A stretch of 64,000 bases of DNA from Bacillota bacterium (lineage in GTDB: Bacteria; Bacillota; DTU025), in the NCBI GenBank assembly GCA_050951805.1, contig JBMNJT010000002.1:1184001-1248000 (forward strand), in the 5' to 3' direction. The stretch's first letter is position 1, and each line of letters opens with the position of its first letter. The notes beneath the pieces were generated by a model, which was given only the letters and a program-made list of their open reading frames with translations, was not told the DNA's origin and ran no database searches. Shown here in pieces: positions 31,084 to 54,670 of this stretch. The position numbers were made by a program, and so were the translations under genes.

Positions 31084-32868
31084 ATGCGTATAATCAGGCT
31101 TGCCCCTGAAGTCGCCAATAAGATAGCCGCAGGCGAAGTTGTTGAAAGGCCCGCGTCGGTTGTGAAGGAGCTTGTAGAAAACTCCATAGACGCCGGGGCT
31201 AACACCATAAGCATAGAGACGCTAGGAGGCGGTCTGGAGCTTGTCATGGTTACAGACGACGGTTGCGGCATGGGGCGAGAAGATGCGGCGCGGGCCTTTG
31301 AACGCCATGCCACCAGCAAGATTGCCCGGGCGGAAGACCTCTTTTCCATAGAAAGCCTCGGCTTCAGGGGCGAGGCTCTCCCGAGCATCGCTTCAGTTGC
31401 CAGAGTGAGGCTTGTCACCTGTGAGCGCGGAAGCGGTGAAGGGACGGTGGTAGTGGCGGAAGGGGGACGAGTGGGGGAGCCTACAGCTATCGGGGCACCC
31501 TGTGGTACAAGCATTGCCGTTCGGGATCTCTTCTTTAACACGCCTGCAAGGCTCAAGTATTTGCGTTCCGTCTCTACGGAGAACAGGAGGATCATAGGCA
31601 CCGTGGGCAGCCTGGCCCTGGCCCATCCTGAAATCGGATTTAGCCTCAAGGTGGACGGGCGCACGGCGCTTGTCACTCCGCAAGGCGGATCGATTGAGGA
31701 GGCGGCTGCCGCGGTCCTCGGGCTGGAGGTAGCTCGCGAGATGATTCCGGTAAAGAGTTCCTCCCACGGGATCTTCGTAAAAGGCCTCATCTCTTTGCCT
31801 CAGCACGCCAAGGGCAAACGCCGCGACTCGCAATACATATTTGTAAACGGTCGTCCGGTCGTATCCACGACAGTCTGGTCTGCCATAGACAAGGCCTACG
31901 ACAAGACTGTTCCCGTAGGCATCAGACCTCCGGTAATTCTTTCGATCGAGATTGATCCGTCTCAGATCGACGTCAACGTTCACCCAGCCAAGAGTGAAGT
32001 GAGATTCGCGTCGAACTCCGATGTATTCTCCGCTGTCTGCGGAGCCTTAGCCTTTGTGCTGCGTTCAGTCGATGCCGTCCCAGACCTGGAGCCTGTTAAG
32101 CCCACAGCAGGATGGGGCCAGACGGGTGCAGTATCTAGGCAATGGCGGGGGCCGGGCGCCTCATATGGAGGTGAGCCTCAACATCTTACCATCTCGTCAT
32201 GGGATCGGGAGAGCGCGTTCCGTGAGGTGAGGCCTGCGTCCGGACTGGGCGTTGCTCTTGGGCTGGCTCCGGCAAGATCAGGCCTTGCAGGCGCGGTCCC
32301 TGAGGTTATTGGACAGCTGGATGATACGTATATTCTTGCGCAAGGTGCCGAAGGCTTGGTCATAATAGATCAGCATGTCGCACACGAACGTATTTTGGTG
32401 GACAAATACCGGGAGGAATTCGCGAAGGAGAAGCCGTCTGTCCAGCTCCTTCTGACACCTGAGATCGCAGAGATAGGCGCGTCGGACGTGGAGATCGTGG
32501 CCAAACACGGAGACGTTCTGTCGAGAATGGGTTATGATCTAGACCTGTTCGGTGCGACCTCTGTCGTGATCAGAGGAGTCCCCTCTCAGAGCGCCGGGGT
32601 GCCGCCGGCAGAGTCGCTCATGGCCGCCATCGAAGGGATTGTCTCGGCGCCTTCAGGGTCTGATCCCGGATTGCTGGCAGATCATATCGCGGTGTCGCTT
32701 GCATGCCGCGGAGCGGTGAAGGCAGGCGATTCTCTCACTATTGCTGAAATGAAGTCTCTTGTGGAGAGGTTGTTCGAATCTGAGGATCCCTATCGGTGTC
32801 CGCATGGACGGCCCGTGGTCGTGCTAGTGCCGGGGGATGCGTTGGCAAGGAGTTTTGGGCGCAAGTAA
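31084..32868 (+). CDS. mutL: DNA mismatch repair endonuclease MutL
   Basis: KIAAGEVVERPASVVKELVENSIDAGA, GFRGEAL, DQHVAHER, ACR, CPHGRP. Confidence 0.97.
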   Translation: MRIIRLAPEVANKIAAGEVVERPASVVKELVENSIDAGANTISIETLGGGLELVMVTDDGCGMGREDAARAFERHATSKIARAEDLFSIESLGFRGEALPSIASVARVRLVTCERGSGEGTVVVAEGGRVGEPTAIGAPCGTSIAVRDLFFNTPARLKYLRSVSTENRRIIGTVGSLALAHPEIGFSLKVDGRTALVTPQGGSIEEAAAAVLGLEVAREMIPVKSSSHGIFVKGLISLPQHAKGKRRDSQYIFVNGRPVVSTTVWSAIDKAYDKTVPVGIRPPVILSIEIDPSQIDVNVHPAKSEVRFASNSDVFSAVCGALAFVLRSVDAVPDLEPVKPTAGWGQTGAVSRQWRGPGASYGGEPQHLTISSWDRESAFREVRPASGLGVALGLAPARSGLAGAVPEVIGQLDDTYILAQGAEGLVIIDQHVAHERILVDKYREEFAKEKPSVQLLLTPEIAEIGASDVEIVAKHGDVLSRMGYDLDLFGATSVVIRGVPSQSAGVPPAESLMAAIEGIVSAPSGSDPGLLADHIAVSLACRGAVKAGDSLTIAEMKSLVERLFESEDPYRCPHGRPVVVLVPGDALARSFGRK

Positions 32869-33219
32869 ACCGCCCCACGCCGAAAGGCAGGGGATTACTG
32901 ATTGGTGCACTGTGGCTGATGGTTAGGCAAAAGTGGTGAATAGAACACCTCACGTTTACGAGGCCTATGGGTACGTCACACCTAAAGCATGCTAGATCTC
33001 GAGAAGGGTGTTTGGAGGGCCAATAGGGCACATAGCGTGTCCATGGGTTTCAGCTATTTGACAAGGTTGAGTATATGTGCCTTGTCTTCGCAAGACGTAT
33101 CACAGGCTATTGTGACATTTGGCACAAGGATCTCGGCATCGGCCAATGCTGTACGAAAGGAGGGAAAACGCTACTTCCCCCCATATCTGAGTGAGGGGGT
33201 CTTTGTAGCGTGACATTTG
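32865..33219 (+). mobile_element. Miniature degraded IscB/omega-RNA (IS200/IS605 superfamily) relic, copy 1
   Basis: 5' GTAAACCGCCCCACGCCGAAAGGCAGGG resembles the omega-RNA/HEARO 5' hairpin; IscB-like peptides PHVYEAYGYVT (32948-32980) and HGFQLFDKVEYMCLVFARRITGYCDI (33042-33119); 3' end shared with copy 2. Confidence 0.75.
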
Positions 33220-34065
33220 ATGAAGGACGTTGGCCGTATTGCCGTGACTACATCCGCGCGGGGCGGACGCCATCAGGTTGATCTTGGAATAAGACTTGCA
33301 CACGAGCTTGGTGCGCCTTTCATAACGAGGGCAGGGAGATCGTTGCAATCTCTTGCGGACGCTTACAGCGAGGATGGTCGTGGCGAGCTGGAAGCGTTCA
33401 TGGTTGTTGAGGCGGACAGGATAAGCGTTGTGAGGTTGGCGGATGCGGGCAGGCGCAGTGCGGAGTTGTTCTTCCATCCCGGAATGGCCTTGTCGAGGAT
33501 TCGTCGACTGAAGCAAGGTGGAGTAGACCAGATGGTTGAGGCCATGGGAATATCCTCTGGCGATCACGTGCTCGACTGCACGATCGGCTTGGCGTCAGAC
33601 GCTATAGTCTCTTCATGGGTTGTGGGAAGCCGTGGACGGGTTGTGGGAGTGGAGGTCAGTCCGGTTCTTTCCATTATCACCCGTGAGGGGCTCACGAGCT
33701 ACACCGAGGCAGATCCAGACGTCCTAGATGCAATGAGGCGCATAGAGGTGGTCGCCTCAGATCATCTGGACTATCTCAGGTCATGTGCAGACAAGAGCTT
33801 TGATGTAGTCTCCTTCGATCCCATGTTTAGGGAGCCAGTGACGTCATCCGCAGGTATTGCCCCCATACGGCCCTGGGCATGCCACACGCCACTTTCCGTG
33901 GAAGCGCTTTCGGAGGCTTGCAGGGTGGCACGCAGACGTGTCGTCGTCAAGGACAGGGCGGACGGGGATGAACTTGACAAGCTGGGCGTGGGCCATAAGA
34001 TCGGGGCAAAGAAGAGTCGGCAGGAATATGGGGTGATATTCGTTGAAGGAGAGCGAAAGGACTGA
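33220..34065 (+). CDS. Class I SAM-dependent methyltransferase (RsmJ-like family found beside mutL-miaA)
   Basis: LFFHPGMA, VLDCTIGLASDA, FDVVSFDPMF, ARRRVVVK. Confidence 0.85.
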   Translation: MKDVGRIAVTTSARGGRHQVDLGIRLAHELGAPFITRAGRSLQSLADAYSEDGRGELEAFMVVEADRISVVRLADAGRRSAELFFHPGMALSRIRRLKQGGVDQMVEAMGISSGDHVLDCTIGLASDAIVSSWVVGSRGRVVGVEVSPVLSIITREGLTSYTEADPDVLDAMRRIEVVASDHLDYLRSCADKSFDVVSFDPMFREPVTSSAGIAPIRPWACHTPLSVEALSEACRVARRRVVVKDRADGDELDKLGVGHKIGAKKSRQEYGVIFVEGERKD

Positions 34066-35122
34066 CCGGGTAAGGGAGGCGTCTCGGGGAGAGAGCGTCG
34101 GGGATGGTATAGGCCGAGTGGGAAATGGGGCTGGGCATCCGGGTGAACCTGACTTTCAAAGAAGGCCGCCGCTTCTCGTCATAGTCGGCCCCACCGCTGT
34201 CGGCAAGTCCGCAGTTGGCATGGAGCTTGCGCGCAAGCTTGGAGGGGAGATAGTGTCAGCCGATTCCATGCAGGTCTACCGGGGCATGGATATTGGCACA
34301 GCTAAGCCTTCCCAAGCGGAGCGGGCGGAGATCCCCCATCACCTTATAGATGTCGCTGACCCCGACGAGATCTTCTGTGTAGCCCGGTATCAGGAGATGG
34401 CCAGGGAAGCCATACGCGACATAGCGGCTCGAGGGAGACTGCCAATCATGGTGGGTGGGACCGGGTTGTATGTGGACGCGGTTGTCCGCGGTTTCCTATT
34501 CCCCGATGAAGGGCGAAATCCCAACATACGCCGCCGTCTTGAGAGAGAGGCTGAAGTGACAGGGAGCCCGGCGTTGCACGTTCGTCTTGCCGAGGTGGAC
34601 CCTGTTGCGGCAGAGCGAATACACCCCAATGACCTGAGGCGAATAGTGAGGGCGTTGGAAGTTTACGAAGTGACCGGGATGGCCATATCCGAGCTCCAAC
34701 GCAAACACGAAGGAGAGAGCGAGTTTGACACGGTCATCTACGGACTGCGCATGGCGCGCCAGGCGCTAAACAAGCGGATAGACGACCGTGTGGACATTAT
34801 GGTCGAGCAGGGCCTGATCGACGAGGTTCGCTCGCTGATGGAACACGGCTATGATCCGAGATACACTGCAGTGCAGGCTATAGGATACAAGGAGTTTGCC
34901 TTGTACCTTGCCGGGGAGGAGAGCCTCGAAGAGGCGATCGACACATTGAAGCGGGAAACGAGGAAATATGCGAAGAGGCAGATGACATGGTTCCGCAGGA
35001 ATCCCAACATACGTTGGATCGATGTGGAGTGTGGCAGAGGGCCTGAAGATATTGCAGATGAAATCGCAGCGTCTATTGAGAGCTGGCTCAAAGGAGTGGG
35101 ATTTTCTGTTGGATCGAAGTGA
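34043..35122 (+). CDS. miaA: tRNA dimethylallyltransferase
   Basis: GPTAVGKS, ADSMQVYRGMDIGTAKP, VGGTGLY, AIGYKE, YAKRQMTWFR; start uncertain. Confidence 0.96.
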   Translation: MKESERTDRVREASRGESVGDGIGRVGNGAGHPGEPDFQRRPPLLVIVGPTAVGKSAVGMELARKLGGEIVSADSMQVYRGMDIGTAKPSQAERAEIPHHLIDVADPDEIFCVARYQEMAREAIRDIAARGRLPIMVGGTGLYVDAVVRGFLFPDEGRNPNIRRRLEREAEVTGSPALHVRLAEVDPVAAERIHPNDLRRIVRALEVYEVTGMAISELQRKHEGESEFDTVIYGLRMARQALNKRIDDRVDIMVEQGLIDEVRSLMEHGYDPRYTAVQAIGYKEFALYLAGEESLEEAIDTLKRETRKYAKRQMTWFRRNPNIRWIDVECGRGPEDIADEIAASIESWLKGVGFSVGSK

Positions 35123-36389
35123 AGTGGCCCACATTCTCGGGGTCGATGACGATATCATGGAATTGGCTTCCTGCGTACACGAAGAAATATCGGACGAGAT
35201 AGCGACAGTAAATTCGATATGCAGAATTAATACCGCTCGGGTGCTTGAAGCCTTAGCCAAGGCAGGCCTGAGCGACTATCATTTTGGGGGCACGACAGGG
35301 TATGGCTATGACGACATCGGGCGTGACTGCCTTGAAGAGGCATTCGCACACGTATTCGGCGCCGAGTCGGCATTGGTGCGAATACAGATTGTTTCGGGAA
35401 CCCATGCGTTGGCAGCAGTCATCTTCGGTGTACTCCGCCCCGGGGATCTTCTGGTGTCGGCCTTTGGAACGCCTTATGACACAATGGTCACCATGATCGG
35501 ACGGGACAGGCCGGTGCGCGGATCTTTGGCAGAATACGGCATAGATTACCTTGAGGTGCAACCTGCCGCCGATGGTGGGCCTGACTTCGAGCAAATTGCG
35601 AGCGCTTCAAGGGGCGCCAGGATGGTGATGGTGCAAAGGTCTCCAGGATACTCGTGGCGAAGGTCCCTCGGCATTGATGAGATTGGCAGAATCGCTAGAT
35701 GCGTCAAGGAGGCTAACCCTAAGGCTATAGTCTTTGTCGACAATTGCTACGGCGAGTTCGTGGAAACTCGGGAGCCCACCGCTGTCGGCGCTGATGTGGC
35801 GGCTGGTTCGCTCATAAAGAACCCTGGCGGAGGCATTGCTCCGTGCGGAGGATATATTGCAGGACGCGCCGATATAGTGGAGATGGCGGCGGAACGGCTA
35901 ACAGCCCCCGGACTAGGCTGTGAATGCGGCCCGAGCCTTGGATATACGCGTCAGCTGGCTCAGGGTCTCTTCATGTCTCCACTGATTGTGGGCGAAGCGG
36001 TCGCCGGCTCCATCTTCGCGGCGGCCTTCCTAAGTAAGCTGGGATATGAGGTTTCACCCTGTCCGGGCCAGGCACGTCACGACATAGTACTTGGCGTAAG
36101 GCTTGGATCGGCAGACGTGGTCTCCTCATTCTGCCAAGCAGTCCAATCGGCGTCTCCGGTTGATGCAGCTGTTCGTCCCATAGCAGCGCCGATGCCAGGA
36201 TACGCAGATGAAGTCATAATGGCCGCAGGCGCTTTTGTCCAGGGATCGTCAATTGAACTTTCCGCAGATGCGCCGCTTCGGCCGCCTTACGACGCATACT
36301 TGCAGGGCGGACTCATCAGGCATCAGGTCGAATTTGCCATGCTCAAGTTCGCGCAGGATGTGAAGGAGAAAGCTAGAAGTAGGGAGTAG
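35109..36389 (+). CDS. ynbB: Methionine gamma-lyase family / aluminium resistance protein (YnbB)
   Basis: TTGYGYDDIGRD, VSGTHAL, FVDNCYGEFVE, GSLIKNPGGG, AAGAFVQGSSIELSADAP. Confidence 0.92.
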   Translation: MDRSEVAHILGVDDDIMELASCVHEEISDEIATVNSICRINTARVLEALAKAGLSDYHFGGTTGYGYDDIGRDCLEEAFAHVFGAESALVRIQIVSGTHALAAVIFGVLRPGDLLVSAFGTPYDTMVTMIGRDRPVRGSLAEYGIDYLEVQPAADGGPDFEQIASASRGARMVMVQRSPGYSWRRSLGIDEIGRIARCVKEANPKAIVFVDNCYGEFVETREPTAVGADVAAGSLIKNPGGGIAPCGGYIAGRADIVEMAAERLTAPGLGCECGPSLGYTRQLAQGLFMSPLIVGEAVAGSIFAAAFLSKLGYEVSPCPGQARHDIVLGVRLGSADVVSSFCQAVQSASPVDAAVRPIAAPMPGYADEVIMAAGAFVQGSSIELSADAPLRPPYDAYLQGGLIRHQVEFAMLKFAQDVKEKARSRE

Positions 36390-36443
36390 ACGATAATAGC
36401 CTGTGCACGTGTTGCCAATTGAGTATTGGAGGTTGATTGTCCC

Positions 36444-37676
36444 ATGTTGCCTGCGAAAAAGTCGCGCACGAGCCTTTGCGCTATCGCCTTTCTTTGCATT
36501 ATGGCGGTTTCACTGGCAGCGCCGCATGGCGCAGATGCCGTTTGGGCAGCCGAGACGGTACGCAGCCTACTTGAGCTCCCAAGTGCCGATCGGGCTCTGG
36601 GGAATAACGATGGTGCAACCCTCGATTGCCTTGTAATACAAGAATCTGGTCTTGCAGTGGCTACGCATGTTGTTGAAGTGGATCTCGTTGCGGGCATGAA
36701 CAAGGTAAGAGTTGCTGGCGTTTCCGACACAATACAGTGCGGCGCTGCCGAGATCATTTCGGGTACCGTCCCATTTACTGTAGTATCTGCGGCAACAAAC
36801 AGGGCTGCCGGGGAGCTCATCTTCAGTGTGAAGGCTGAAACCGCGTCCCATGCAGTCTTCAGGGTGGCCTACCCGCTGTCAGGGCTCACATGGAGCGCAT
36901 CCTACAACGCGGTGCTGGAGCCTACTAAGGACGCTGCTGGGATCTGGGGGTGGTATTCGATACATAACGAGACAGACTGTGATCTCGCACCGGCTAGGAT
37001 AGTCTTGATGGGTGGATCCACTAATCCTCTCGGGTCAAAGCCGGGCTTCAAGGGGGATTCTGCTCTGGGGAAGACGGTTGCGACAATAGATTCTCCTGAG
37101 ATGATTCCAGCGGGTTCGCAGCGGAATATCAGGTTTGCCGGCGGAGCGGCAGTGCCCGCGCGCCTCGTTTATGTAGTTGATTGGGGACCGATGGCGATAC
37201 TCGATTCTTCGTCACAAGGAAAGGGCGAGCGTCCCGTCATGCTCGGCTTGGAGTTTTCGGCGTCCAAGGAGACCGGGTTGGCGTACCCTCTTCCCGGGGG
37301 ACGCATATCCGTCTTCAGCCTATCTTCGGATGGGACGACATTTTTCCTCGGCGAAGACCTTGTTTCCCCGTGCCAGAGCGGAACAACACTCATCGCGAAG
37401 GTGGGGCCTGCTGTTTTGCTTACTGCGGAACGGACTCGCACAGATCAGCGCAAGGTGGGCACGAGCAGTTGGGAGGAGGCCTACCAGGTGAGGATAGCGA
37501 ACGCCGGAACGGCGAGTGTCACCGTCATCAACGTGGAGGAGTTTCCGGGGCAGTGGACTATTCTTCAAAGCAATATTCCAACTCCTCCGATCGTCTCGGG
37601 GCGGGCGCAGTTCAGTGTCAATGTTCCCGCAGGCGGGCAGGCAAATATTCTTTTCAGGGTTAGATACACACTTTGA
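36444..37676 (+). CDS. Secreted DUF4139-like protein
   Basis: Signal peptide; Y..SGLTWSASY, GLAYPLPGGRISVF, FLGED, VEEFPGQW. Confidence 0.65.
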   Translation: MLPAKKSRTSLCAIAFLCIMAVSLAAPHGADAVWAAETVRSLLELPSADRALGNNDGATLDCLVIQESGLAVATHVVEVDLVAGMNKVRVAGVSDTIQCGAAEIISGTVPFTVVSAATNRAAGELIFSVKAETASHAVFRVAYPLSGLTWSASYNAVLEPTKDAAGIWGWYSIHNETDCDLAPARIVLMGGSTNPLGSKPGFKGDSALGKTVATIDSPEMIPAGSQRNIRFAGGAAVPARLVYVVDWGPMAILDSSSQGKGERPVMLGLEFSASKETGLAYPLPGGRISVFSLSSDGTTFFLGEDLVSPCQSGTTLIAKVGPAVLLTAERTRTDQRKVGTSSWEEAYQVRIANAGTASVTVINVEEFPGQWTILQSNIPTPPIVSGRAQFSVNVPAGGQANILFRVRYTL

Positions 37677-37690
37677 GGAGTGGTTCGGCC

Positions 37691-38542
37691 TTGCACTCTT
37701 TTCCCCGTGGCGCCGTGGTAAGTAATTCGTCAGGCACATGCATTGCAATAGAGAAAGACATGGCTAGCCAGTTCGTGGGGGTCATTCCCGAGCCCGAGGA
37801 GGCTGTCTCCCGTATTGCCCGGAATCTGCAGCTGGTTTACGGGATCGGTCCGGTGAGGGAGGCTGGGCTTAAGGAAGAGGGCTATGCGACCCTTTTCGAT
37901 CTGCTTTCCCATGAAAAATGGGGCCAGGGAGCCCGTCCTATCGTGGAGGCTCTCGAGCGCGCTGATGGATGGGAGCTTTTGCGCTACGGGGTGCCTGGTC
38001 TGGATATTTTGGCCTTTTGCGCCCCCGAAGAAGTTGTTTTCCTCGACATCGAAACAACCGGGCTTTCCAGCACCTCGGCACTGTTCATGGTGGGCATGAT
38101 CATTCCGTCGGAACGAGGCCTCATCCTGCACCAACTCTTCGCCAGAGAATATGAAGAGGAGCCTGCAGTTATCGAGGAGACGCTCGCGCGGCTCGCGGAC
38201 GCGCGGGCGGTTGTAACCTATAATGGCAAGAGCTTCGATATGCCGTTTCTTCTGAGGCGCCTGGCTTACTATGGACGGGAAGACAACCCGCATGCTGCCA
38301 TCGTCGATCTTTGCCCCCCGGCCAGACGCAAATACTCCTTTTCCTTGCCCAATTGTCGACTCTCCACAATACAGACCATGGTCCTCGATGTTCCAAGGGA
38401 CGGAGACATCCCCGGTTCGCTCATTCCCGGGCTCTACAATGACTGGGTCAGGACGGGAGATGCGGAGAAGATCATCCCCGTGCTCGACCACAATGAACTC
38501 GATCTTGTTGCCATGGTTGATCTCCTTCCTTTGCTCATCTGA
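37691..38542 (+). CDS. RNase H-like domain protein (YprB family) with N-terminal HhH motif
   Basis: FLDIETTGLS, VTYNGKSFDMPFL, DIPGSLIP, HNELDL; YGIGP HhH motif; start uncertain. Confidence 0.85.
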   Translation: MHSFPRGAVVSNSSGTCIAIEKDMASQFVGVIPEPEEAVSRIARNLQLVYGIGPVREAGLKEEGYATLFDLLSHEKWGQGARPIVEALERADGWELLRYGVPGLDILAFCAPEEVVFLDIETTGLSSTSALFMVGMIIPSERGLILHQLFAREYEEEPAVIEETLARLADARAVVTYNGKSFDMPFLLRRLAYYGREDNPHAAIVDLCPPARRKYSFSLPNCRLSTIQTMVLDVPRDGDIPGSLIPGLYNDWVRTGDAEKIIPVLDHNELDLVAMVDLLPLLI

Positions 38543-38547
38543 ATCCG

Positions 38548-38576
38548 GCATAATTCCCCCCAAGTCTCATATAGAT
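38548..38576 (+). promoter_or_regulatory. Putative sigmaE promoter of spoIVA
   Basis: GCATAAT-N13-CATATAGAT upstream of spoIVA, which is an established sigmaE-regulon gene. Confidence 0.5.
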
Positions 38577-38666
38577 GTAGCGTCTGAGAGCAGGTACAAC
38601 CCACGTGCATCCTGCAGGGGTGTGAGGCCGCCTCCACCCGGACTCGATGCGAGGGAGGGCGAATGG

Positions 38667-40145: not shown

Positions 40146-40308
40146 CTGCCAGCTGCTTTAGCTACGTCTGGAGCCGTAGATGGCACGGCGGTGTATCTGA
40201 CCGCATCGCCCGGTCCTGTTTGATATGGCCATTTTCGAAAGCCCTTGAGGCGGAAGTAATAAAGGCTTACGTCGCGGGAAAACATACTGATGGAAGGGGG
40301 CTGAGGAC

Positions 40309-40581
40309 ATGACCAAGTCAGATCTTGTGGATTCGGTTGCCGTCAAGACAGGAATGACAAAGAAGGACACTGCAAGAACAGTAGACGCGATCCTTGAAAC
40401 CATAAAGGAGCAGCTGAAGGCGGGAGAGAAGGTGCAACTCGTCGGCTTCGGCAGCTTCGAGGTGAAGAAGAGAGAGGCAAGGGTAGGAAGGAATCCCAAG
40501 ACCATGGAGGAGATACGAATTCCGGCCAGGAATGTCCCGGTGTTTAGAGCGGGAAAAGAGTTGAAAGAGTCGGTTCTCTAA
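40309..40581 (+). CDS. hup: HU DNA-binding protein
   Basis: MTKSDLVD, VQLVGFGSFEV, GRNPKT, PVFRAGKELKE. Confidence 0.96.
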   Translation: MTKSDLVDSVAVKTGMTKKDTARTVDAILETIKEQLKAGEKVQLVGFGSFEVKKREARVGRNPKTMEEIRIPARNVPVFRAGKELKESVL

Positions 40582-40698
40582 GCAATGCCCCGATGTCGCC
40601 AGAAAGAAAGGGCGGGGCCCGGTCGGTGACTGACTCGGGCTCTGTGGGGTGTGTGCGACCTGCTGTGATCGTGTTTCAAGCGTAGCTTGCAATGACAG

Positions 40699-41469: not shown

Positions 41470-41488
41470 TTATCGCCACAACCTTAAA

Positions 41489-42778: not shown

Positions 42779-42828
42779 AGATCAAAGAAGAGTAGATCAT
42801 AGAGGGTATGATCATGCGCCGCCAGGCG

Positions 42829-42965
42829 CAATCGCTGAATCTTCCCAGCAGGGGAGAGCGGGGGACCCATATCATATGGCAGGGGCGAATCCTGCAGGTG
42901 TGCAGGTAGGGCTAATTCCTTCAGCCCGAGCCCGTCAGCTAACCTCGTAAGCGCTAAGAAGGGAC
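42829..42965 (+). ncRNA. Cyclic di-AMP (ydaO/yuaA) riboswitch
   Basis: AATCGCTGAATC...GAGCGGGGGACCCA...GGGGCGAATC...TAGGG...CCCGAGCCCGTCAGCTAACCTCGTAAGCG matches the ydaO consensus. Confidence 0.92.
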
Positions 42966-42973
42966 GCCCATTT

Positions 42974-42999
42974 AACCCAGGGATGTCCCTGGGTTTTTT
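42974..42999 (+). terminator. Riboswitch expression-platform terminator
   Basis: AACCCAGGGA-TG-TCCCTGGGTT followed by a T-run. Confidence 0.85.
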
Positions 43000-43167
43000 G
43001 TCATGTCGCCTGTATGGCGTCGGCCATACTGTGCGGGCTCAGGTTTTAAGTCCGCGCTTAGCAGGCATCCGCAGACTGCCCCCGTTTTTCCCCAAGATAA
43101 TTGCATACGTCATGAAGCATGATGAATCGGTTTTTCCCAAGTAAGCTTGTCTTAGGAGGTTGGTGTC

Positions 43168-45743: not shown

Positions 45744-45746
45744 GAG

Positions 45747-46682: not shown

Positions 46683-46688
46683 TGGAAA

Positions 46689-47765
46689 ATGGCATACCCG
46701 TGCGCCGCAGATAGCACGCTGCTTGAAATCTCTGGATTACAGACAATCTACCCGACTGCGCGCGGGGAGGTTCAGGCCGTGAGGAACGTAAGCTTTTCTG
46801 TCTCTCAAGGCGAAATAGTGGGAGTAGTGGGGGAGTCGGGGTGCGGAAAGAGCGCCCTGCTCCTATCCATCATGGGGCTTCTTCCGTCGCCTGGACGCAT
46901 TGTGGGAGGCAGGGTTATGTTTGGAGGGACTGACCTTGTAGACCTTTCTGAGGCAGAAATGCGAACGATTCGTGGCAAGGAGATCGCCATAATATTTCAG
47001 GATCCGATGACCGCGCTCAATCCTGCCTATCGAGTTGGTGAACAGATAGCAGAATCTTTGCGGGTGCATGGTATGGTTCCAGTATCTGCAGGTGACACCG
47101 GAAGGTTATGCGGAGATGGGGGCGGGTTGGGCCCGAGAATGAGGAAGACACGATCGCGTAAGCTGTCTGCCGCCGAAGAACGTGAGTATGTATTCGAGCT
47201 GATGCAGAGTGTAGGAATACCCATGCCCGAGCAGAGACATCTGGATTATCCTCACCAGTTCAGCGGAGGCATGCAGCAGAGGATAATGATCGCGATCGCC
47301 TTGGCTTGCAAGCCGAAGCTTCTTCTTGCAGACGAACCAACTACTGCACTGGACGTAACCATCCAAGCTCAGGTGCTCGACTTGATAGATGAGATCAACG
47401 AGACCACCGGAACTGCTGTCGTCCTTGTCACGCACGACTTGGCTGTGGCAGCAGATTTCTGCGATTCTATAGCTGTGATGTATGCGGGGCAGATTGTGGA
47501 GCGAGGGCCAACAGAAGCGGTTATGGAGGGATCAGCTCATCCATATACCCGCGGCCTGCTCAGATCCATGCCCGTGCTGGGAGAGAGGAAGCCTCTCAGG
47601 CCCATAATGGGCGAAGTCCCGGATCTTGCAAACCTGGGCCCGGGGTGCAGTTTCGCTCCAAGGTGTGACTTTTCAGAGGATGTGTGTTTTGAGAGGGCTC
47701 CGGATGTGAGCATCGTGGAAAAGGGGCATGAGGTCAGATGCCATCATCACTCGGGCGCGTTGTAG
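46689..47765 (+). CDS. Peptide ABC transporter ATP-binding protein (OppD/DppD-like)
   Basis: [45 protein letters not shown]. Confidence 0.93.
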
Positions 47766-47983
47766 CCTGGTGCGAATGATCGGTGAGTGCCAGTTATCGG
47801 CAGTCCGGAATGGTCTATGGGGTATGCTCCCGCGAAATGCTCAGAATTGGCGATCTCAAGCCCCATCGTACTCATTCATACAGCCTTTTACCAATGTCTC
47901 TTAAGGTCTTCCGCCGACTCACGCGGCGGCAGGCCACACTTGAATAATTCACGCCCGGTGGGGAGGACACGCAAAATCACTGC

Positions 47984-50140
47984 TCAACTGGAGTAGAAAA
48001 CTCTCTTCACGCGGATGCCTATCCGGCTGAGCAACTCATTGGTTATCGTTCCGGCATCGGCAGCTGCTTGTTCTGCCGTGATCTCCGCAGAACCGTCTCT
48101 GCCGATCAATGTGGCGACATCGCCGCGCTTCACGTCCGGGATCCCGGTGACGTCGACCATCAGCTGATCCATGCATATTCGGCCTATAATGGGTGCACGG
48201 CATCCATGGATCAATACTGAGCCTCTGCCGCCCGAGAGATTGCGTGGAATCCCGTCCCCGTACCCGATTGGGAGGATGGCGACACAAGTATCACGCTCGG
48301 CAATGAAGTGGCGACCATAGCCGACGCTTTCCCCGGCTGTAACGGTTCTAACAAGCGAAACCCGTGCCTTCAACGACAGGACATTTTTTATGTCCAGGTG
48401 GAGCCTGGTCTGATCATGGGGCGAGCTCAGTGTGCCGTACAATGCAATCCCGACTCTTGCATAATCGCATTTAAGCATTGGATAGTTAAGGAGGCCATAA
48501 CTGCTTTGAACGTGTATCTTGGGAAGGGTGACGTTTTGCTCCCGGAGCGTCTCCAGGAGATGGTAAAACCTATCTATCTGCATTTCTGTAAATTGAGCGT
48601 CTTCCGGTTCCATGCTATCTGAGACGGAAAGGTGAGTGTAGATTCCGTCAATACAAAGATTCTTGAGGCCGAAGATGCTGGCAATCTCCGATACATGATC
48701 CCAGGGCTCTCCCATACGGTGCATGCCGGTGTCCACTTTGATGTGGACGTGTATTGGTTTCCCGCAAGCATTGAGGCGCACAGCGTGTTCTCGATCGACG
48801 ACTGTCTGCGACAAACGGTAGCGGGCGAGCTCGCCAGCTCTTTCGGGCACAGTGTAGCCGAGTATCAGGATTGTTCCTCTGATTCCATGTTTTCGCAGGC
48901 GAATTCCTTCATCGATAGCGGCAACCGCGAAGGCATCGATTCCTATCTGATTCAGATGTTTTGCAACTTCCACATCGCCATGCCCGTATGCATTGCCTTT
49001 GACGGCAGCCATTAGTTTACATCCATCCGGCATAGCTTTGCGCAGGACTTGGACGTTGTGGCTCAGGCAGGTTAGGTCGATCTCAGCCCACGCCCTGTCC
49101 ATAGTGGCGTGTTCAGGAGCGAGCTCTCTGTTTTGAAAGACTCGCAGCAACAACAGGATCGCTTCTGCGGCAGCAAGGGAAGATACTGCTACGGCAAGAA
49201 AATGGATGACGCTGTTAGCTATCAGCCATCGTTTGAGGCCCGCGGCTTTGGCAAGCCATCGAACGAGTATGATCATCATGGGATGGACTAAATAGATGAG
49301 CGTAGAGATGTCCCGCAGCTCTTTGCGCGTTTTGCCATTGATGTGTAGCAGGCTCTGAAAAAGGAGAGCCGCGCAGGGCAGGAGCGTAAGGTACATGCTA
49401 TCGTGCCTTGGGATCCCGCAGGTGTGAAGGAGAAGCGCTTCTGCCAGCATAAGAAGAAACGCAACTGCCAGCCCCGTAAAGCACGCCTTTGGCTGCAGGC
49501 GCCTCGCTGGCGGGGCCATCATGGCGCCAAGCAATAGAAAGACCGGAGCGAAGAAAAGTCCGTTCCGCGTGTAGTCCGAAACTGTGAAGACTGATGCATA
49601 GAACGATTGCAGGAATGGCACTCTTTCTGCAATTCCGTAGTAGCTGTCGCCGAACAGGCCGACCAGGTAGAGGATGAAGGCTATGCCAAAGGCGTGGCCA
49701 GGGCCGAGCCTTTTCAGCAACAGCCAGGCAATGGTCGCGCCGATCATCGCTGCCGGCAGATACCATAAGTGATAAAACGTGCCGTCAAACACAATGTCCT
49801 TCAGCAGTTCTTTGGCCAGATGTTCAGTTCTGAAGGTTCCCGCATAGATGTTGACAGGGAGATACAGCAAAGTTGAAATGGCGTACAACGCGGCCGTTTT
49901 CCTCAGAAAGCGAAACAGCCTTGCGCGGTCCGCTTCGCTGTCTGTCGCCTTTCCACGAAACAGGAAAAATCCTGAGGTCATGAAGAAGAACGGCACTGCT
50001 ACACGGGCAATTATCCTTGTCAGGATGAAATCAGCGGTCCCGTTCACTGACGACAGGGGGGAAGTGTGGTTAGCCACTACGAGAAATGCAGCGATTATTC
50101 TGAAGTAATCAATACCGGGGAACTCTTCCTGCAGATTCAT
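47984..50140 (-). CDS. vanT: Membrane-bound serine racemase VanT (vanG type)
   Basis: N-terminal acyltransferase-like TM domain (GIDYFRIIAAFLVVANHTSP) fused to a racemase domain (RAWAEI, AAVKGNAYGHG, KVDTGMHRMG, GRICMDQ). Confidence 0.93.
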   Translation of the reverse strand: MNLQEEFPGIDYFRIIAAFLVVANHTSPLSSVNGTADFILTRIIARVAVPFFFMTSGFFLFRGKATDSEADRARLFRFLRKTAALYAISTLLYLPVNIYAGTFRTEHLAKELLKDIVFDGTFYHLWYLPAAMIGATIAWLLLKRLGPGHAFGIAFILYLVGLFGDSYYGIAERVPFLQSFYASVFTVSDYTRNGLFFAPVFLLLGAMMAPPARRLQPKACFTGLAVAFLLMLAEALLLHTCGIPRHDSMYLTLLPCAALLFQSLLHINGKTRKELRDISTLIYLVHPMMIILVRWLAKAAGLKRWLIANSVIHFLAVAVSSLAAAEAILLLLRVFQNRELAPEHATMDRAWAEIDLTCLSHNVQVLRKAMPDGCKLMAAVKGNAYGHGDVEVAKHLNQIGIDAFAVAAIDEGIRLRKHGIRGTILILGYTVPERAGELARYRLSQTVVDREHAVRLNACGKPIHVHIKVDTGMHRMGEPWDHVSEIASIFGLKNLCIDGIYTHLSVSDSMEPEDAQFTEMQIDRFYHLLETLREQNVTLPKIHVQSSYGLLNYPMLKCDYARVGIALYGTLSSPHDQTRLHLDIKNVLSLKARVSLVRTVTAGESVGYGRHFIAERDTCVAILPIGYGDGIPRNLSGGRGSVLIHGCRAPIIGRICMDQLMVDVTGIPDVKRGDVATLIGRDGSAEITAEQAAADAGTITNELLSRIGIRVKRVFYSS

Positions 50141-50901
50141 CCCAAATGCCTCCATAATGTCACCACAAAGCCATCATCGTTGTTCCCGGATACCTGAAAA
50201 GGGATTCTGTCCGGCAGTTCGATTTCAACCTCCTGACCTGGTTCGACGGGGACATGAAAAATCTCGAAGTCGTAGTTGTCGTGCTTGATCCGAAGATGTG
50301 CTCCGTCGAAGGGAAAGTGCTTGAGGCAGTCAGTATACTCCTCCAGCGTAAACTCATTTCCCCTGATCAGTTGGGAATGGGGATAGCCAACGTAGCGAAA
50401 ATGCCAGGGCTCGTGTGCAATTTGGGTGATGGATTCCCGTCCAGCCGGGTAGCGCTGGATGAATCCATACTGTACTGACAGCTTCCGGAACTCTTGACAG
50501 ATTCCGGTGTAAGGGAAGTATGGCCGGATGAAATCGATGTCCGGCCTGTTTTCTCCCAAATCGATTGCTAGTCCGGTCTGGTGCTCGCTGCATCCCACAG
50601 TTGCGACGTATTTCTTCGTAAACTCCTTCCCGTTTTCGCGCATGGAATCGGCGTATATAGCCTGCTGTTCCTGCATCGTGCGATAACCGCTGACTGGTAC
50701 GATTTGATCCTCGCATTGCAAGAGAGCAGCCACTTCTGCCAGCATCCTTGCTGTTTGCCTTTCTAGAACGATCTCGGGAAAGGCAGGGCGAATAGGCACA
50801 AGCACTTCATCGGCTGGTGTCGTCGCAAGTGGATGAGAGGGATTGACGAGGATGAGGTTGCCCTTGCCAATGTCCTCTGCATAGAGTTTCAGCGTTCTCA
50901 T
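50137..50901 (-). CDS. vanXY: D,D-dipeptidase/D,D-carboxypeptidase VanXY (M15B)
   Basis: LILVN, VSGYR, SEHQTGLAID, EPWHFRYVG. Confidence 0.9.
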   Translation of the reverse strand: MRTLKLYAEDIGKGNLILVNPSHPLATTPADEVLVPIRPAFPEIVLERQTARMLAEVAALLQCEDQIVPVSGYRTMQEQQAIYADSMRENGKEFTKKYVATVGCSEHQTGLAIDLGENRPDIDFIRPYFPYTGICQEFRKLSVQYGFIQRYPAGRESITQIAHEPWHFRYVGYPHSQLIRGNEFTLEEYTDCLKHFPFDGAHLRIKHDNYDFEIFHVPVEPGQEVEIELPDRIPFQVSGNNDDGFVVTLWRHLG

Positions 50902-51953
50902 CGGTCGATCGCCAGCCTTATAAGCGTGTCTACAATCTGCTCAAAGCTCATTCCAATCCCCTTTAGCATGTTGGGATACCGGCTATGGGTGGTGAAACCG
51001 GGTATGGTGTTGACTTCATTGAAGACGATATCTTCTTCAGGAGTGAGGAACATGTCAACTCGCGCGTACCCCGAACACTCCAGAGCCCTGTAGATGACGA
51101 TAGCTGTTTGCTTGATGCGTGCAGCAGTCTCCACATCGATCCGCGCAGGCATATGGATCTTCGAAGTTTTCAACGTATATTTCTCGGTGTAATCGAAGAA
51201 GCCGTTGCAGAGCTCGATCTCGTCCACCTCTCCAATGGTGAGTACGTCATTGCCGAGGACAGCACAGCCGACCTCGAATCCATCAATTGATTCCTCTATT
51301 ACTACTTTTCTATCGTGTTCGAAGGCAGCACTGACTGCACAGGCAAGCCCGCTTTCCTGGGAAACCTTAGTAATGCCGAAGGAGGAGCCGGCATTTGCCG
51401 GTTTCACAAAGAGTGGGTATTTCAGGTGCGCAATCCGCTTAAGCAGCTCCGCTTCGGAGACGTAAGAGTGCAGCACAATCGATGGAGGTGTTTTTACTCC
51501 AGCCAGGCTGACTATTCTGTGAGCTATGTCCTTGTCCATGCACATGGCTGAGCTCAATACGCCACATCCAACACAGGGGATGCCCGCCATTTCCAGTAGG
51601 CCTTGAACTGTTCCGTCCTCGCCGTTCTTCCCATGTAGAACCGGAAAGGCAACGTCGATTCGGGTCGTGGTTACCTTGTTGCCGTGAAATTCAAGTATCC
51701 CATGGGTATTTCGATCGGGAGAAATGATGGCCGGAACGGAGACGCTGTGATCCATCCACGTATTGTCCTTGATCTGCTCCACAGGACCGGTGAATCTCAT
51801 CCAAGCTCCCTGGCGGGTAATCCCGAGCAGTATCAAGTCGTATTCTTCAGGGTTGAGGTTGGTGATTACCGAATAGGCCGACTGCAGCGATATTTCATAC
51901 TCCGTGGAAGATCCGCCGAATATCACGGCTACTCTTGTTCGTTTCATGTTCAT
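50898..51953 (-). CDS. vanG: D-alanine--D-serine ligase, VanG type
   Basis: FGGSSTEYEISLQSA, LHGKNGEDG, GSSFG, FFDYTEKY (EKY signature of D-Ala-D-Ser ligases), NTIPGFTTHSRYP. Confidence 0.92.
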   Translation of the reverse strand: MNMKRTRVAVIFGGSSTEYEISLQSAYSVITNLNPEEYDLILLGITRQGAWMRFTGPVEQIKDNTWMDHSVSVPAIISPDRNTHGILEFHGNKVTTTRIDVAFPVLHGKNGEDGTVQGLLEMAGIPCVGCGVLSSAMCMDKDIAHRIVSLAGVKTPPSIVLHSYVSEAELLKRIAHLKYPLFVKPANAGSSFGITKVSQESGLACAVSAAFEHDRKVVIEESIDGFEVGCAVLGNDVLTIGEVDEIELCNGFFDYTEKYTLKTSKIHMPARIDVETAARIKQTAIVIYRALECSGYARVDMFLTPEEDIVFNEVNTIPGFTTHSRYPNMLKGIGMSFEQIVDTLIRLAIDR

Positions 51954-52147
51954 GACTCCTTGTCTCTACGGTCTTGGCGTTTACGTGGTGTTCTGCGGGT
52001 TGACAGCGGCGGGGGATGAAGGCCTCCGCAAGCTGTTTCCTTCTCAAACACGCAACGTAATCTATGAAGTAGAAACGCCTGCGTGATTCGTTAATCTAAC
52101 CTTATCCGAATCAGGCAGGCTAAAAAGTAGGCTCTGCTTGTAGAAAT

Positions 52148-52162
52148 CTTAAGAAATACTTA
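52148..52162 (-). promoter_or_regulatory. Putative VanR (OmpR-type) binding direct repeat upstream of vanG
   Basis: Minus strand reads cgTAAGtatttctTAAGattt, i.e. TAAG repeated with an 11-bp period, about 200 bp upstream of vanG. Confidence 0.4.
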
Positions 52163-52449
52163 CGGACGACTCATTGTTCTGTTAATCTCGGCGGCCGGTG
52201 CATTTGATTGTGCTCAAGGTGGTTTCACCCGATTGGCGAATTGTTATGGGATAAAAGTGTGTGGGGGAAGCCAACACAAGACAGGAAAGCAACATGGGAG
52301 GAGAGATATGAGGAACGAGATGGGTGAGCCGATAGCCAATCACGGGTATGGCTCCGCATGTCTCGCGCAATTCGGATGACATGGCGAATTGCGGCGACGT
52401 GATTCGCGTCGCGAGTGCATGGTGCAGAGCGGGGGCAATTGCATCATGA

Positions 52450-53604
52450 TTATCCAACTGTTCCATCTTGATTCGGGAGCGTAACGGTGAAAACCGTTCG
52501 TTCCTCGTTGCTTGTGGCTGTGATGTTGCCTCCATGTGCAGTAACGATCTTCTTGGCGATGGCAAGGCCCAATCCTGCACCGCCAGAATTCGTAGAACGA
52601 GAGGCATCAAGCCGGAAGAACTGGTCGAAGATCGTCTCTAGCTTGGCGGATGGAATGGGATCGCCTTGATTGGCAAAGACGATGATTACGCTTTGATCTT
52701 CCTGGCGCGCGGAGATGCGGATGATGCTGCCTCGATAGCTGTAGGCGGCGGCGTTCTTGAGGATGTTGTTGAAAACGCGGGCCAACTTGTCTGCATCTCC
52801 CCACAATGTGAGGCCATCAGGTGCATCAACGACCGCTTTCTTGCCCTCGGGCTCCAGCATGGGATAGAATTCATCCGCTACTTGGTTCAACATGAAGGAG
52901 AGGTTTATCTTGCCCTTGTTCAGTACGATGGATTGCAGGTTGAACCTAGTGATCTCGAAGAACTCATCGATCAGCTGCTCCAGCCGGTAGGCCTTTTCCA
53001 AGGTGATGCCCACGTATTTGGCTCTTTGCTCCGGCGGCATGTCGGGGGCTTCATCCAGAAGGCTCAGGTAGCCAATGACGGAGGTGAGAGGCGTTTTGAT
53101 ATCGTGTGCCAGATAGACCACGAGGTCATTCTTGCGTTGCTCCGCTTCCTGCGCATCCCATTTTTGTCTTTCCAGCGTTCCTTTTATCTTGTTCAGCTTT
53201 GTTTCCATGTGTGCTAGTTCAGGTGATAGGATTATGTCGCTGCCGGGTTTGTCAACAAGCTGATCGATCCCGGCACTGATCTCGTCGAAGTATTTGGCAA
53301 ACCATGACAGCGAGAACCTGAGGAAAATCAGTATGAAAACGATGATAGCGATGAACACGTATAGAAGGGCATTGTCGCTGAATACTTCTTGCCAAATGCG
53401 ACCAGCTTCATCGTTGGACAGGTGAAATGCTTTTTCTAGGAAGTTCACAACGTTGGGCCGGAAACGCCACATGGTTAGTAGGCACAGAAAAAACACTACT
53501 GCAACTGCGGAGAGAACAATCAGAAGCATCCTGCGAAAGACTTTCTTCTTTAGTCTTGAGTAGTCGCCTTTGTCCCTTTTCCTATTTCTCAATCTTGTAG
53601 CCAA
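52450..53604 (-). CDS. vanS: Sensor histidine kinase VanS
   Basis: Two TM helices; YLAHDIKTPLTS, DEFFEITR, NNILKNA, GGAGLGLAI. Confidence 0.92.
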   Translation of the reverse strand: MATRLRNRKRDKGDYSRLKKKVFRRMLLIVLSAVAVVFFLCLLTMWRFRPNVVNFLEKAFHLSNDEAGRIWQEVFSDNALLYVFIAIIVFILIFLRFSLSWFAKYFDEISAGIDQLVDKPGSDIILSPELAHMETKLNKIKGTLERQKWDAQEAEQRKNDLVVYLAHDIKTPLTSVIGYLSLLDEAPDMPPEQRAKYVGITLEKAYRLEQLIDEFFEITRFNLQSIVLNKGKINLSFMLNQVADEFYPMLEPEGKKAVVDAPDGLTLWGDADKLARVFNNILKNAAAYSYRGSIIRISARQEDQSVIIVFANQGDPIPSAKLETIFDQFFRLDASRSTNSGGAGLGLAIAKKIVTAHGGNITATSNEERTVFTVTLPNQDGTVG

Positions 53605-54277
53605 CTCCCCATACCGTCTTTATGTATTTGGGATTTTCCGCAGAATCGTTCATCTTCTCCCTCAGATGGCGGATGTGCACCATGACCGTGTTGTTACTAG
53701 TAAAATACTTCTCACCCCATACCTCGCGGAACAACTCTTCGGAACTGACCACGCGGCCCCGATTGGATGCCAACATCCACAGGATGTCAAATTCTGTCGG
53801 GGTTAGGGATAACGGCCTCTCGTTGAGCGTGCATTCATGGGCATCCTTGTCAATGACCAAGCCTGCAGACGCGATCACATTCTCCTCATCAGCTGGTTCA
53901 GAGGGATTGTACCTTGTGTACCTGCGAAGCTGCGCCTTAACTCGGGCCACCATCTCGAGCGGTCGGAATGGTTTTGTAATATAATCGTCTGCGCCCAGTG
54001 TGAGGCCTGTGATCTTGTCGATCTCCTCATCCTTCGCCGTGAGCATGATGATAGGGAAGTTGTGTTTCTCCCGGATCTTTTGGCAGATCTCAAACCCGGT
54101 CATGTCGGGGAGCATCACGTCCAGGATTGCCAGATCCAGTGGTTCACTTTCTACAAGGGCTAAGGCATCCTGCCCGTTATGGGACTTGAAAACAATGTAG
54201 TTCTCGTTTCTTAAGTACAGTTCAATCAAGTCTGCGATGGCTTTCTCATCATCAACAACTAGTATACGGTCATTCAT
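53582..54277 (-). CDS. vanR: Response regulator VanR (OmpR family)
   Basis: ILVVDDE, LDVMLPD, GADDYITKPF, NTVMVHIRHLREK, KTVWGVGY. Confidence 0.93.
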   Translation of the reverse strand: MNDRILVVDDEKAIADLIELYLRNENYIVFKSHNGQDALALVESEPLDLAILDVMLPDMTGFEICQKIREKHNFPIIMLTAKDEEIDKITGLTLGADDYITKPFRPLEMVARVKAQLRRYTRYNPSEPADEENVIASAGLVIDKDAHECTLNERPLSLTPTEFDILWMLASNRGRVVSSEELFREVWGEKYFTSNNTVMVHIRHLREKMNDSAENPKYIKTVWGVGYKIEK

Positions 54278-54670
54278 CAAACATCACGCTACGGAGATTC
54301 CCCTTCAGGTGTGGGGAGGAAGTAGCGTTCCCCCTCCTTTCGCACAGCACTGTGCTTGCAGCTTCCTTTGAACATATCTGGACGCTTTGTTGGCTACTCC
54401 TTGTGCACTTGCCTGATTCGGTTCTTAGCTTGTTTCGAGAGATCCCAAGTGCCCGGCTCTACCGTTGAGTTGCCACTTGCATCTGTACGATGGAATTTCC
54501 CAAGCCTTGCACATGTGTTTGCCTGCTCGGTGATGTACCCATGAGTTACGCCAACATTCGGGTGTGCTTTTCGTGACCGAAATCCCAACGCATTATCCCC
54601 AAGAACACCGCAACGGAAAGGTCAGCGGGGGCTCTTGCAAGCCCCTACCTTTAGGCTTGGAGTGGTTGAT
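54278..54670 (-). mobile_element. Miniature degraded IscB/omega-RNA (IS200/IS605 superfamily) relic, copy 2
   Basis: Minus-strand 5' end ATCAACCACTCCAAGCCTAAAGGTAGGGGCTTGCAAGAGCCCCCGCTGACC resembles the omega-RNA 5' stem; IscB-like peptides AVFLGIMRW (54611-54585) and HPNVGVTHGYITE...LGKFHRTDA...SGN...RQVHK; 3' end shared with copy 1. Confidence 0.8.

Follow-up and report, generated by a model that had tools for sequence, protein, structure and literature searches.

Insertion sequences of the ISC group, which encode IscB, are described as inserting at an N|ATGA target without duplicating it and as carrying subterminal hairpins and 5'-GT/CG-3' termini (Kapitonov et al. 2016, PMC4810608, in the parts of the article used here). 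In Geobacillus, the wild-type target-adjacent motif (TAM) of IscB is TTCAT, the complement of ATGAA, and the transposase TnpA and the nuclease read the same motif; the omega RNA is bounded by the right end (RE), and protein-less derivatives of IscB and TnpB elements, the palindrome-associated transposable elements (PATEs), are known from the same genus (Meers et al. 2023, bioRxiv 10.1101/2023.03.14.532601, likewise in part). Here we compare with these systems a window of 64,000 nt from a Bacillota bacterium (GenBank assembly GCA_050951805.1, contig JBMNJT010000002.1; G000:C2:1184001-1248000 in our labelling, G000 being the organism's own assembly, 97% complete and in 8 contigs), in which we observe two short relics of such elements, A and B. 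Together with four more copies in the same genome, these are probably fossils of full-length IscB-encoding insertion sequences (ISC, IS200/IS605 superfamily; OMEGA) that decayed in place at start codons and whose 3' end would now serve the host gene.

The relics resemble ISC transposons in the subterminal hairpin 3' of iscB, in insertion 5' of ATGA without duplication, in GT.../...YG termini and in being mostly non-autonomous, but only iscB fragments survive here (PMC4810608, same parts). With the ISGst IscB element of G. stearothermophilus and its PATEs they have in common the omega RNA at the TnpA right end, iscB towards the left end, the TTCAT TAM and target and the existence of protein-less derivatives, whereas abutment of a downstream start codon is not described in the part of that source used here, and the relics are immobile fossils where PATEs have a uniform structure (bioRxiv 10.1101/2023.03.14.532601). 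Of HEARO RNA (RF02033), the omega RNA of IscB, the relics keep the first 35-45 nt, the rest of the scaffold being deleted. The element type, the hairpin ends, the ATGA/TTCAT target and the protein-less derivatives are already in print, and no new mobile system is revealed.

Two relics with a common 3' end at host start codons

Both relics lie directly before an intact host gene on the same strand, with the following features.

32865..33219, + strand: relic A, a decayed IscB element (ISC, IS200/IS605) of 355 nt, lying after the mutL stop and before the SAM_MT methyltransferase start
32865..32905, + strand: 5' end of relic A, remnant of the first HEARO/omega-RNA scaffold helix (GTAAACCG-CCCCACGCCGAAAGGCAGGGG), by eye against the HEARO consensus and intact relatives
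33039..33119, + strand: fragment of relic A coding for part of the IscB C-terminal domain (VHGFQLFDKVEY..FARRITGYCDI), tblastn with the intact L089 IscB, 53% identity over 30 aa, E 1.3e-6
33155..33164, + strand: Shine-Dalgarno (SD)-like GAAAGGAGGG of relic A, ancestrally IscB codons (..RKEG..), kept in 6/6 relics
33169..33210, + strand: subterminal hairpin CGCTAC...GTAGCG of relic A, interpreted, on the opposite strand, as the left-end hairpin that TnpA recognises
33211..33219, + strand: ancestral IscB stop TGA and 6-nt spacer CATTTG of relic A, the element ending at 33219
33220..34065, + strand: host gene of relic A, SAM-dependent methyltransferase SAM_MT (PF04445), 281 aa, its ATGAA being the target/TAM
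54278..54670, - strand: relic B, a decayed IscB element of 393 nt that separates the start codon of a response-regulator gene from the native SD
54625..54670, - strand: 5' end of relic B, first HEARO/omega-RNA scaffold helix (ATCAACCA-CTCCAAGCCTAAAGGTAGGGGCTTG..)
54385..54573, - strand: IscB RuvC-III-region fragment of relic B (..THGYITEQANTCARLGKFHRTDA..), tblastn with L089 IscB aa 288-354, 37% identity, E 1.5e-8
54330..54341, - strand: SD-like GAAAGGAGGGGG of relic B
54287..54327, - strand: subterminal hairpin of relic B (CGCTAC..GTAGCG)
53582..54277, - strand: host gene of relic B, OmpR-family response regulator, 231 aa, start MNDRILVVDDE, ATG at 54277
54671..54688, - strand: native context upstream of relic B, SD GAGGACG (54671-54677) and TATAAT box (54683-54688), left behind by the insertion

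The common 3' end reads GAAAGGAGGG-N4-CGCTAC...GTAGCG-TGA-YRTTTG, followed by ATGAA, and matches at 80-81% over ~80 nt between the two relics (E 9.7e-13 and 5.8e-13 in a search of the whole genome), a similarity that is not due to chance. A 5' hairpin is also common to both in the alignment of A with B (CCCCACGCCGAAAGGCAGGGG in A, CTCCAAGCCTAAAGGTAGGGG in B). The first 35-45 nt track the start of the HEARO consensus (GUCAnnnnCCCC..GCCUAAAGG..GGGGCUUG) as aligned by the Rfam model in seven intact relatives (by eye; consensus GUCAacuaCCCC.gcccUaAAgg..GGGGCuUg, A GTAAACCGCCCC, B ATCAACCACTCC), which places the element boundaries exactly at 32865 and 54670. The original prediction, made from the letters of the window, had named these same two relics, with their sizes, their common 3' terminus and 5' hairpin, and their abutment on the ATGAA of an intact host gene, and in all of this it was exact.

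At A, GTAA, the first bases of the relic, would now supply the mutL stop codon, where the ancestral stop probably overlapped ATGA. The methyltransferase begins MKDVGRIAVTTS here and MDRIAVTTS in the orthologues of two same-genus genomes, G001 and G002. At B, the response regulator has an N-terminus of the same length in two relatives, G003 and G004 (MHKRVLVVDDE, MHSRILVVDDE), whose genes carry GAGGTGA-N6-ATG directly at the start, comparable to the GAGGACG beside the boundary of relic B; the TATAAT box further upstream may act as a promoter.

Six copies in the genome, all at ATGAA starts

A search of the whole assembly with either relic returns six places with the 3' block.

Copy A, host ATG at C2:1217220, + strand
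Copy B, host ATG at C2:1238277, - strand
Copy C, host ATG at C2:1405283, - strand
Copy D, host ATG at C2:826808, + strand
Copy E, host ATG at C8:164628, + strand
Copy F, host ATG at C3:52004, - strand

All six end in GTAGCGTGAYRTYYG and are followed by ATGAA, where the similarity stops, so that the junction reads GATGAA. The order GGAGG, hairpin, TGA, N6 directly before ATGAA is kept in 6/6, with the host genes co-oriented, and the open reading frame (ORF) that begins at each host ATG is 156-281 aa long and matches a Pfam family (SAM_MT, Response_reg+Trans_reg_C, Rrf2, ABC2_membrane, zf-HC2 and DUF155). The host N-termini fit the family or the orthologues, the Rrf2 model for instance being matched from residue 3. 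The hairpin CGCTAC..GTAGCG stands 9 nt from the boundary in every copy, its outer stem invariant and its inner stem variable, and the IscB-homologous frame ends ..VA* at the TGA in 6/6, with the host ATG two codons on in the same frame. The termini are GTAA, GTCG or ATCA on the 5' side and ..TTTG or ..TTCG on the 3' side. Where the original prediction counted two copies and looked for a parent, its count rises to six, all at a start ATGAA and all leaving the coding sequence intact, while an intact iscB or tnpA parent is absent from the assembly.

Descent from IscB and its omega RNA

Intact IscB proteins of relatives served as queries, the IscB model having matched intact genes in the phylum (11 of 151 genomes and 22 of 401). 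By tblastn they recover RuvC-I, bridge-helix, RuvC-III and C-terminal-domain fragments at the six loci, with E from 1e-9 to 1e-4. The L089 IscB matches a strain allele of locus E (aa 359-425, E 1.3e-9), copy C (56% over 41 aa, E 6.7e-8) and the GWLAPS bridge-helix region of copy D (67% over 21 aa, E 1.4e-7); the L090 IscB matches the RuvC-I region of copy E (E 8.9e-6), and the RuvC-III fragment of relic B is also matched by the IscBs of L090 (E 4e-7) and L097. The conserved 3' block corresponds to the C-terminal coding end of IscB (FDKV.Y...F.FGRR.SGYFDLR.LDGT.I.ASA). Different copies retain different parts: B the RuvC-III region (T.GYIT....R.L.K.H..DA), D and E RuvC-I (VDAG..T.G) and the end of the bridge helix (GWLAPS), and A part of the C-terminal domain. 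Judged by these sequence matches, the relics descend from IscB and are not functional members, in agreement with the predicted IscB origin and with the claim that A and B hold largely different internal fragments. A group II intron domain V, an integron attC site, an IS110 bridge RNA and a 5'-truncated retroelement had also been entertained for these structures; the homology to IscB led to all four being dropped.

The same 3' module, in which a GGAGG-like motif precedes a hairpin (internal loop TTCC/YTTCC) and a spacer of 6-10 nt, is observed 3' of intact iscB in L089 (then ATGAA), L106 (ATTAA), L107 (ATGAA) and L088 (ATGTA), and the hairpin architecture occurs 3' of iscB in L110 as well. The 3' end of iscB corresponds to the "left end" of TnpA in the literature, as far as the sources used here describe it, and the hairpin beside ATGAA is therefore the left-end hairpin seen from the other strand.

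Little else of the system remains in the genome. The IscB models NF040563 and PF14239 give only a weak match inside relic D across the whole genome (E 0.27), protein models find no intact IscB above cut-off in the assembly, and tblastn with 24 IscB proteins finds no IscB remnants in it beyond the six relics. A Y1 transposase was found neither in cis nor in trans, PF01797 giving 0 matches in the own genome at E 0.01 or better, in a search whose control detected the family in 6 of 14 reference genomes. An omega RNA upstream of iscB is likewise reduced to a first helix recognisable by eye: HEARO (RF02033) matches neither relic at E up to 10, and the genome-wide search has a single, weak match (19.8 bits), which lies away from the relics. 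Rfam searches of the whole window and of each relic at E up to 10 return no relevant family, and a regular-expression search for the 5' helix in the relatives returns no match, the Rfam alignment being used for that comparison instead. The suggestion that the retained ends might still produce omega-RNA fragments is accordingly unlikely, given that only the first scaffold helix is left and that the HEARO model stays blank.

Insertion at a known target without duplication

In same-genus genomes we observe an empty site at all three loci examined (A, D and E). Locus A is empty in G001 and G002, where the mutL stop and the methyltransferase start are 5 nt apart. Locus D is empty in G002, where the permease start reads ..GGTTAC|ATGAACCTT and the protein begins MNLYAVWVEIK (MNVQAVWVEIK here). 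Locus E is empty in G001 and G002; the sequence at their anti-sigma start is CTCTTG|ATGAYCCAAGATAAG, and up to a conserved GEL the protein does not differ in length. From these uninterrupted sites it follows that the insertion point was the exact 5' edge of a native start codon, ATGA(A/C/T), and that no duplication arose, that is, site-specific insertion 5' of an ATGA-type target (TAM TTCAT). The ATGAA motif that the original prediction had deduced is the known target and TAM, being the reverse complement of the published TTCAT and a match to the ISC target N|ATGA.

A second ATGAAT/ATGAAGC upstream of B, E and F was considered as a target-site duplication or recombination core and rejected, as at E it is native and also present in the element-free relatives. 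A left-hand duplication at B was rejected as well, the flank being the native SD and spacer.

Between four and five of the six relics are co-oriented with replication, and the "top" (active) strand of TnpA thus lies on the leading-strand template. As a separate observation, the cumulative GC skew has its peak near C2:1.24-1.26 Mb, a stretch from about 56000 in the window to beyond its right end, and the gene-strand bias changes there from + to -; the window probably borders the replication terminus.

Probable decay in place

The six copies range from 229 to ~600 nt, each keeps different segments, and their shared parts are 73-87% identical in pairwise comparison. Locus E offers a direct view of how such differences arise. 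Two strain alleles (L078 as opposed to L071 and G000:C8:164100-164627) have identical ends and different internal deletions, one being without the N-terminal fragments and the other without a C-terminal fragment. These alleles are independent deletions from a longer ancestor, and ongoing decay is visible here as polymorphism.

The original prediction had instead suggested a possible family of non-autonomous OMEGA mini-elements that TnpA might mobilise in trans and that an ATGAA motif would steer to gene starts. Such a living family would be similar to PATEs or to miniature inverted-repeat transposable elements (MITEs) and would home to its sites as mini-elements. Copies A, B and C do keep both ends, namely the first omega-RNA helix and the subterminal hairpin, and protein-less PATEs are described for Geobacillus (bioRxiv 10.1101/2023.03.14.532601, in the part used here). 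Uniform protein-less copies with intact ends and high identity are not what we observe, however: the deletion pattern differs from copy to copy, identity is modest, the locus E alleles differ by deletions rather than by a swap to a shared mini-element, and neither a Y1 transposase nor an intact IscB is present in the genome. In addition, a pattern scan of metagenomes yields 16 stretches, all from the same species and all at known loci (A 3, B 2, C 3, D 5, E 3, F none), with no new insertion sites and no parent element. We therefore regard a mobile family of this kind as highly improbable, and this part of the original prediction does not survive. An exact-pattern scan of the genome contig collection gave a further 17 stretches that were set aside; 0/17 have a GGAGG or GATGAA context, and they look like chance.

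Fossils of full-length elements account better for this pattern. Each copy would have entered at full length, ~1.5-2 kb by a guess based on intact relatives, and would then have lost most of its interior through independent deletions. Read in the iscB sense, each fossil comprises the first omega (HEARO) RNA helix, IscB fragments, the C-terminal coding end with GGAGG, the hairpin, TGA and 6 nt, ahead of the host ATGAA.

The relic as leader of the host gene

In B, C and F the native SD now stands 230-600 nt upstream of the start codon, and no SD is found in the 9 nt preceding the host ATG of the relics. Each carries an element-borne GGAGG 4-5 nt before a hairpin of 40-55 nt, which itself stops 9 nt short of the ATG. 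In the metatranscriptomes of two studies, contigs span relic B and the response-regulator gene (X3 52864-54637, X2 54068-54667, X6 54336-54665); X2 and X3 have zero depth in 54673-55339, where the DNA-like run X1 is continuous. As the RNA contigs run without a break over relic and gene, the relic is part of the leader of that gene, and the stretches that these contigs leave uncovered, together with contig ends that nearly coincide at 54637-54667, point no more than weakly to a 5' end. The displacement of the native initiation context, which the original prediction had proposed, is thus borne out by the native SD on the far side of the relic and by the presence of relic B in RNA contigs together with its gene.

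It may be suggested, then, that the SD and hairpin of the relic drive translation of the host gene. While the element lived, iscB would have ended 6 nt before the host ATG, so that termination-reinitiation kept the host gene translatable, and the hairpin would bring the element-borne SD near the ATG; the surviving 3' end would now be the translation-initiation region of the gene and the relic its 5' untranslated region (UTR). Comparable spacings between IscB stop and host ATG are found in intact relatives, where the two overlap in L088, abut in L086 and lie 10 nt apart in L087. Two familiar arrangements offer a resemblance, though no more than that: the SD and start codon that are split and bridged by a hairpin, of the phage T4 gene 38 type, and termination-reinitiation coupling at closely spaced stop and start codons. 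In the relics, too, SD and AUG are parted by a stable hairpin and the stop of an upstream ORF stands 6 nt before the AUG, but that upstream ORF is now broken in 6/6.

Several points weigh against such a role in initiation. The RNA contigs give neither strand nor transcript ends. The distance from SD to ATG is 55-70 nt in sequence and would still amount to ~13 nt plus a helix if the hairpin forms. The subterminal hairpin appears in the minimum free energy (MFE) fold of five of the six copies; the MFE fold of copy B is without it. Finally, within the species the last 130 nt of the relics show 0 to 5.4% differences per site, a level similar to or above the 0 to 3.4% seen at third codon positions in the gene next to them; purifying selection on the relic leaves no sign in these counts, which are small and come from non-independent strains.

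A leader of fixed architecture could also be a riboswitch-like, structured cis-regulatory RNA common to six unrelated genes. Such an RNA would suit the fixed distance to the ATG, the conservation of the hairpins and the co-transcription with the gene, as well as the possible pairing between GGAGG and the TTCC(T)CCC hairpin arm. Against it, the relic is absent from the orthologous loci of the same genus in 3/3 examined (A, D and E in G001/G002), and a DNA search of 60 relatives with relic D gives 0/60 at E 0.001; no Rfam family corresponds to it, and the conserved region is IscB coding sequence. We attach next to no likelihood to this explanation and return to the fossil IscB elements.

Chance, preference or retention at start codons

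The genome holds 6711 ATGAA sites, 5460 of them in called coding sequences, 1035 intergenic and 216 at called starts; ~97% are not start codons, and the idea that the motif alone would steer elements to gene starts is not supported. The gene calls come from a home-made and crude caller (2223 genes, 83.5% of the genome) that overlooked two of the six host-gene starts, which means that starts are undercounted. Under a crude null in which in-gene insertions are purged, a surviving site is a start with a probability of about 0.17 to 0.26, the upper value allowing for starts undercounted by a third, and the observed 6/6 then has p of about 3e-5 to 3e-4. The predicted excess of start codons over random ATGAA sites is found in this sense. 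A preference at insertion or in early selection cannot be told apart, in this genome, from a retention bias in which only relics pinned to a needed gene stay recognisable. Under the former, start codons would be over-represented because such sites are transcribed in the sense of the element and leave the gene unbroken.

Other genomes provide 28 IscB loci, of which 24 have a closed IscB ORF, with junctions read by eye. In 7/24 (L086, L087, L088, L115, L116, L117 and L119, where L116 and L117 may not be independent) a co-oriented host ATG lies within 12 nt of the 3' hairpin or of the IscB stop. The tendency to adjoin starts recurs, therefore, and is not absolute. Host genes abutted at 0-12 nt by intact IscB elements in other Bacillota are PolA-like, MiaB-like, a membrane protein and a Gam-like phage gene, and several of the seven loci carry the motif AAAGGAGG just 5' of the terminal hairpin. 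A second IscB clade (L092, L093 and L120 in G050, G135 and G391; C-terminus ..KIYWLKC) has a 3' end ..TTTGACCATAYTT, followed within 10-35 nt by an SD, belonging to either element or host, and a host start codon.

A search on IscB with start codon, Shine-Dalgarno, translational coupling and downstream gene found no description of start-codon abutment, although supplements may hold site lists. The main text of PMC4810608 contains 0 occurrences of start codons and 0 of translation, its insertion sites being shown in supplementary figures. Geobacillus IscB elements are co-oriented with neighbouring transcription, and the bias reported in the part of the source used here concerns the upstream gene (bioRxiv 10.1101/2023.03.14.532601).

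The same fossils could also occupy starts without functional meaning, if elements inserted at any TTCAT, copies within genes were purged, intergenic relics were fully deleted and only gene-pinned 3' ends remained, GGAGG then being nothing but old IscB codons. The relics are, after all, detected through their 3' terminus, a part that cannot be lost without risk to the gene; the polymorphism shows no constraint on that terminus, intact elements elsewhere are often off starts (17/24 of those read), and the remnants in G001 and G002 described below are not exactly at starts. On the other hand, the host ORFs are intact in 6/6 in spite of the native SD having moved 230-600 nt off, and the relic must therefore allow initiation. 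The GGAGG-like motif 5' of the hairpin is found both as coding sequence (L089, L108, L121 and L088) and after the stop (L106 and L107), which hints at a role at the nucleotide level. An ORF start within 12 nt of the hairpin in 7/24 unrelated insertions also looks high for random intergenic landing, a comparison for which no expectation was computed. On these grounds we judge survivorship alone to be improbable as an explanation.

Besides the undercounted starts, a number of observations tell against the fossil reading with a start-codon niche. Among the intact IscB loci, a further 5/24 have a host start 25-65 nt away and 12/24 have none. Five intact loci have ATGAA at the junction: it is a real start in L086 and L119, opens no more than 49 aa in L107 and is not a start in L089 and L110. 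Two same-genus remnants of the 3' terminus are L050 (G002:C180:330-440) and L052 (G001:C140, ~14000-14110): the former is followed by ATGAAG, out of frame and 16 nt before the true start of a holin-like gene, and the latter by CTGAG, with no ATGAA and no gene adjoining. The rule for IS608 and ISDra2 is a preference for the lagging-strand template, the opposite of what the relics show. At locus D, ~110 nt of unassigned sequence (G000:C2:826100-826210, about -708 to -600 from the ATG) separate the stop of an ABC ATPase gene from the 5' helix of the relic; in G002 the two genes that flank this place overlap.

Other features of the window

Outside the relics, the window contains a full-length OLE RNA at 5567-6191 on the + strand (RF01071, 470.6 bits), an RNA typical of anaerobic extremophilic Bacillota, and a c-di-AMP riboswitch at 42823-42967 on the + strand (RF00379, 93.4 bits). 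Relative to the window, the DNA-like run X1 shows a 9-nt insertion polymorphism at 54830 and single-base deletions at 52350 and 55184.

Start codons as a possible niche of IscB elements

A possible specialist interest of these relics lies in a consequence of the target, which reads as a start codon on the iscB strand; every surviving copy in the genome sits exactly between an old ribosome-binding site (RBS) and the ATG, the IscB stop lying 6 nt upstream and the GGAGG-hairpin module in the interval. The "5'-UTR rewiring" put forward in the original prediction is supported as a description, and as a function it is an unproven proposal. Going further, it is conceivable, if on balance doubtful, that ISC/IscB elements of this clade are built to live between the host RBS and the start codon. 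The TAM/target (TTCAT = ATGAA, more generally ATG-containing) would then be the start codon plus a Lys/Asn codon, the host promoter would transcribe omega RNA and iscB, the host gene would stay translated because iscB stops 0-10 nt before its ATG and the conserved GGAGG forms a portable initiation region with the end hairpin, and the 3' end would be kept as 5' UTR and RBS after the death of the element. If true, an RNA-guided transposon family would favour start codons as its niche, and rewired leaders would arise there time and again. Were the arrangement a matter of design rather than of survivorship, it would account for the expression and tolerance of IscB elements, in which a transposase is rare, and would make them a source of new 5' UTRs.

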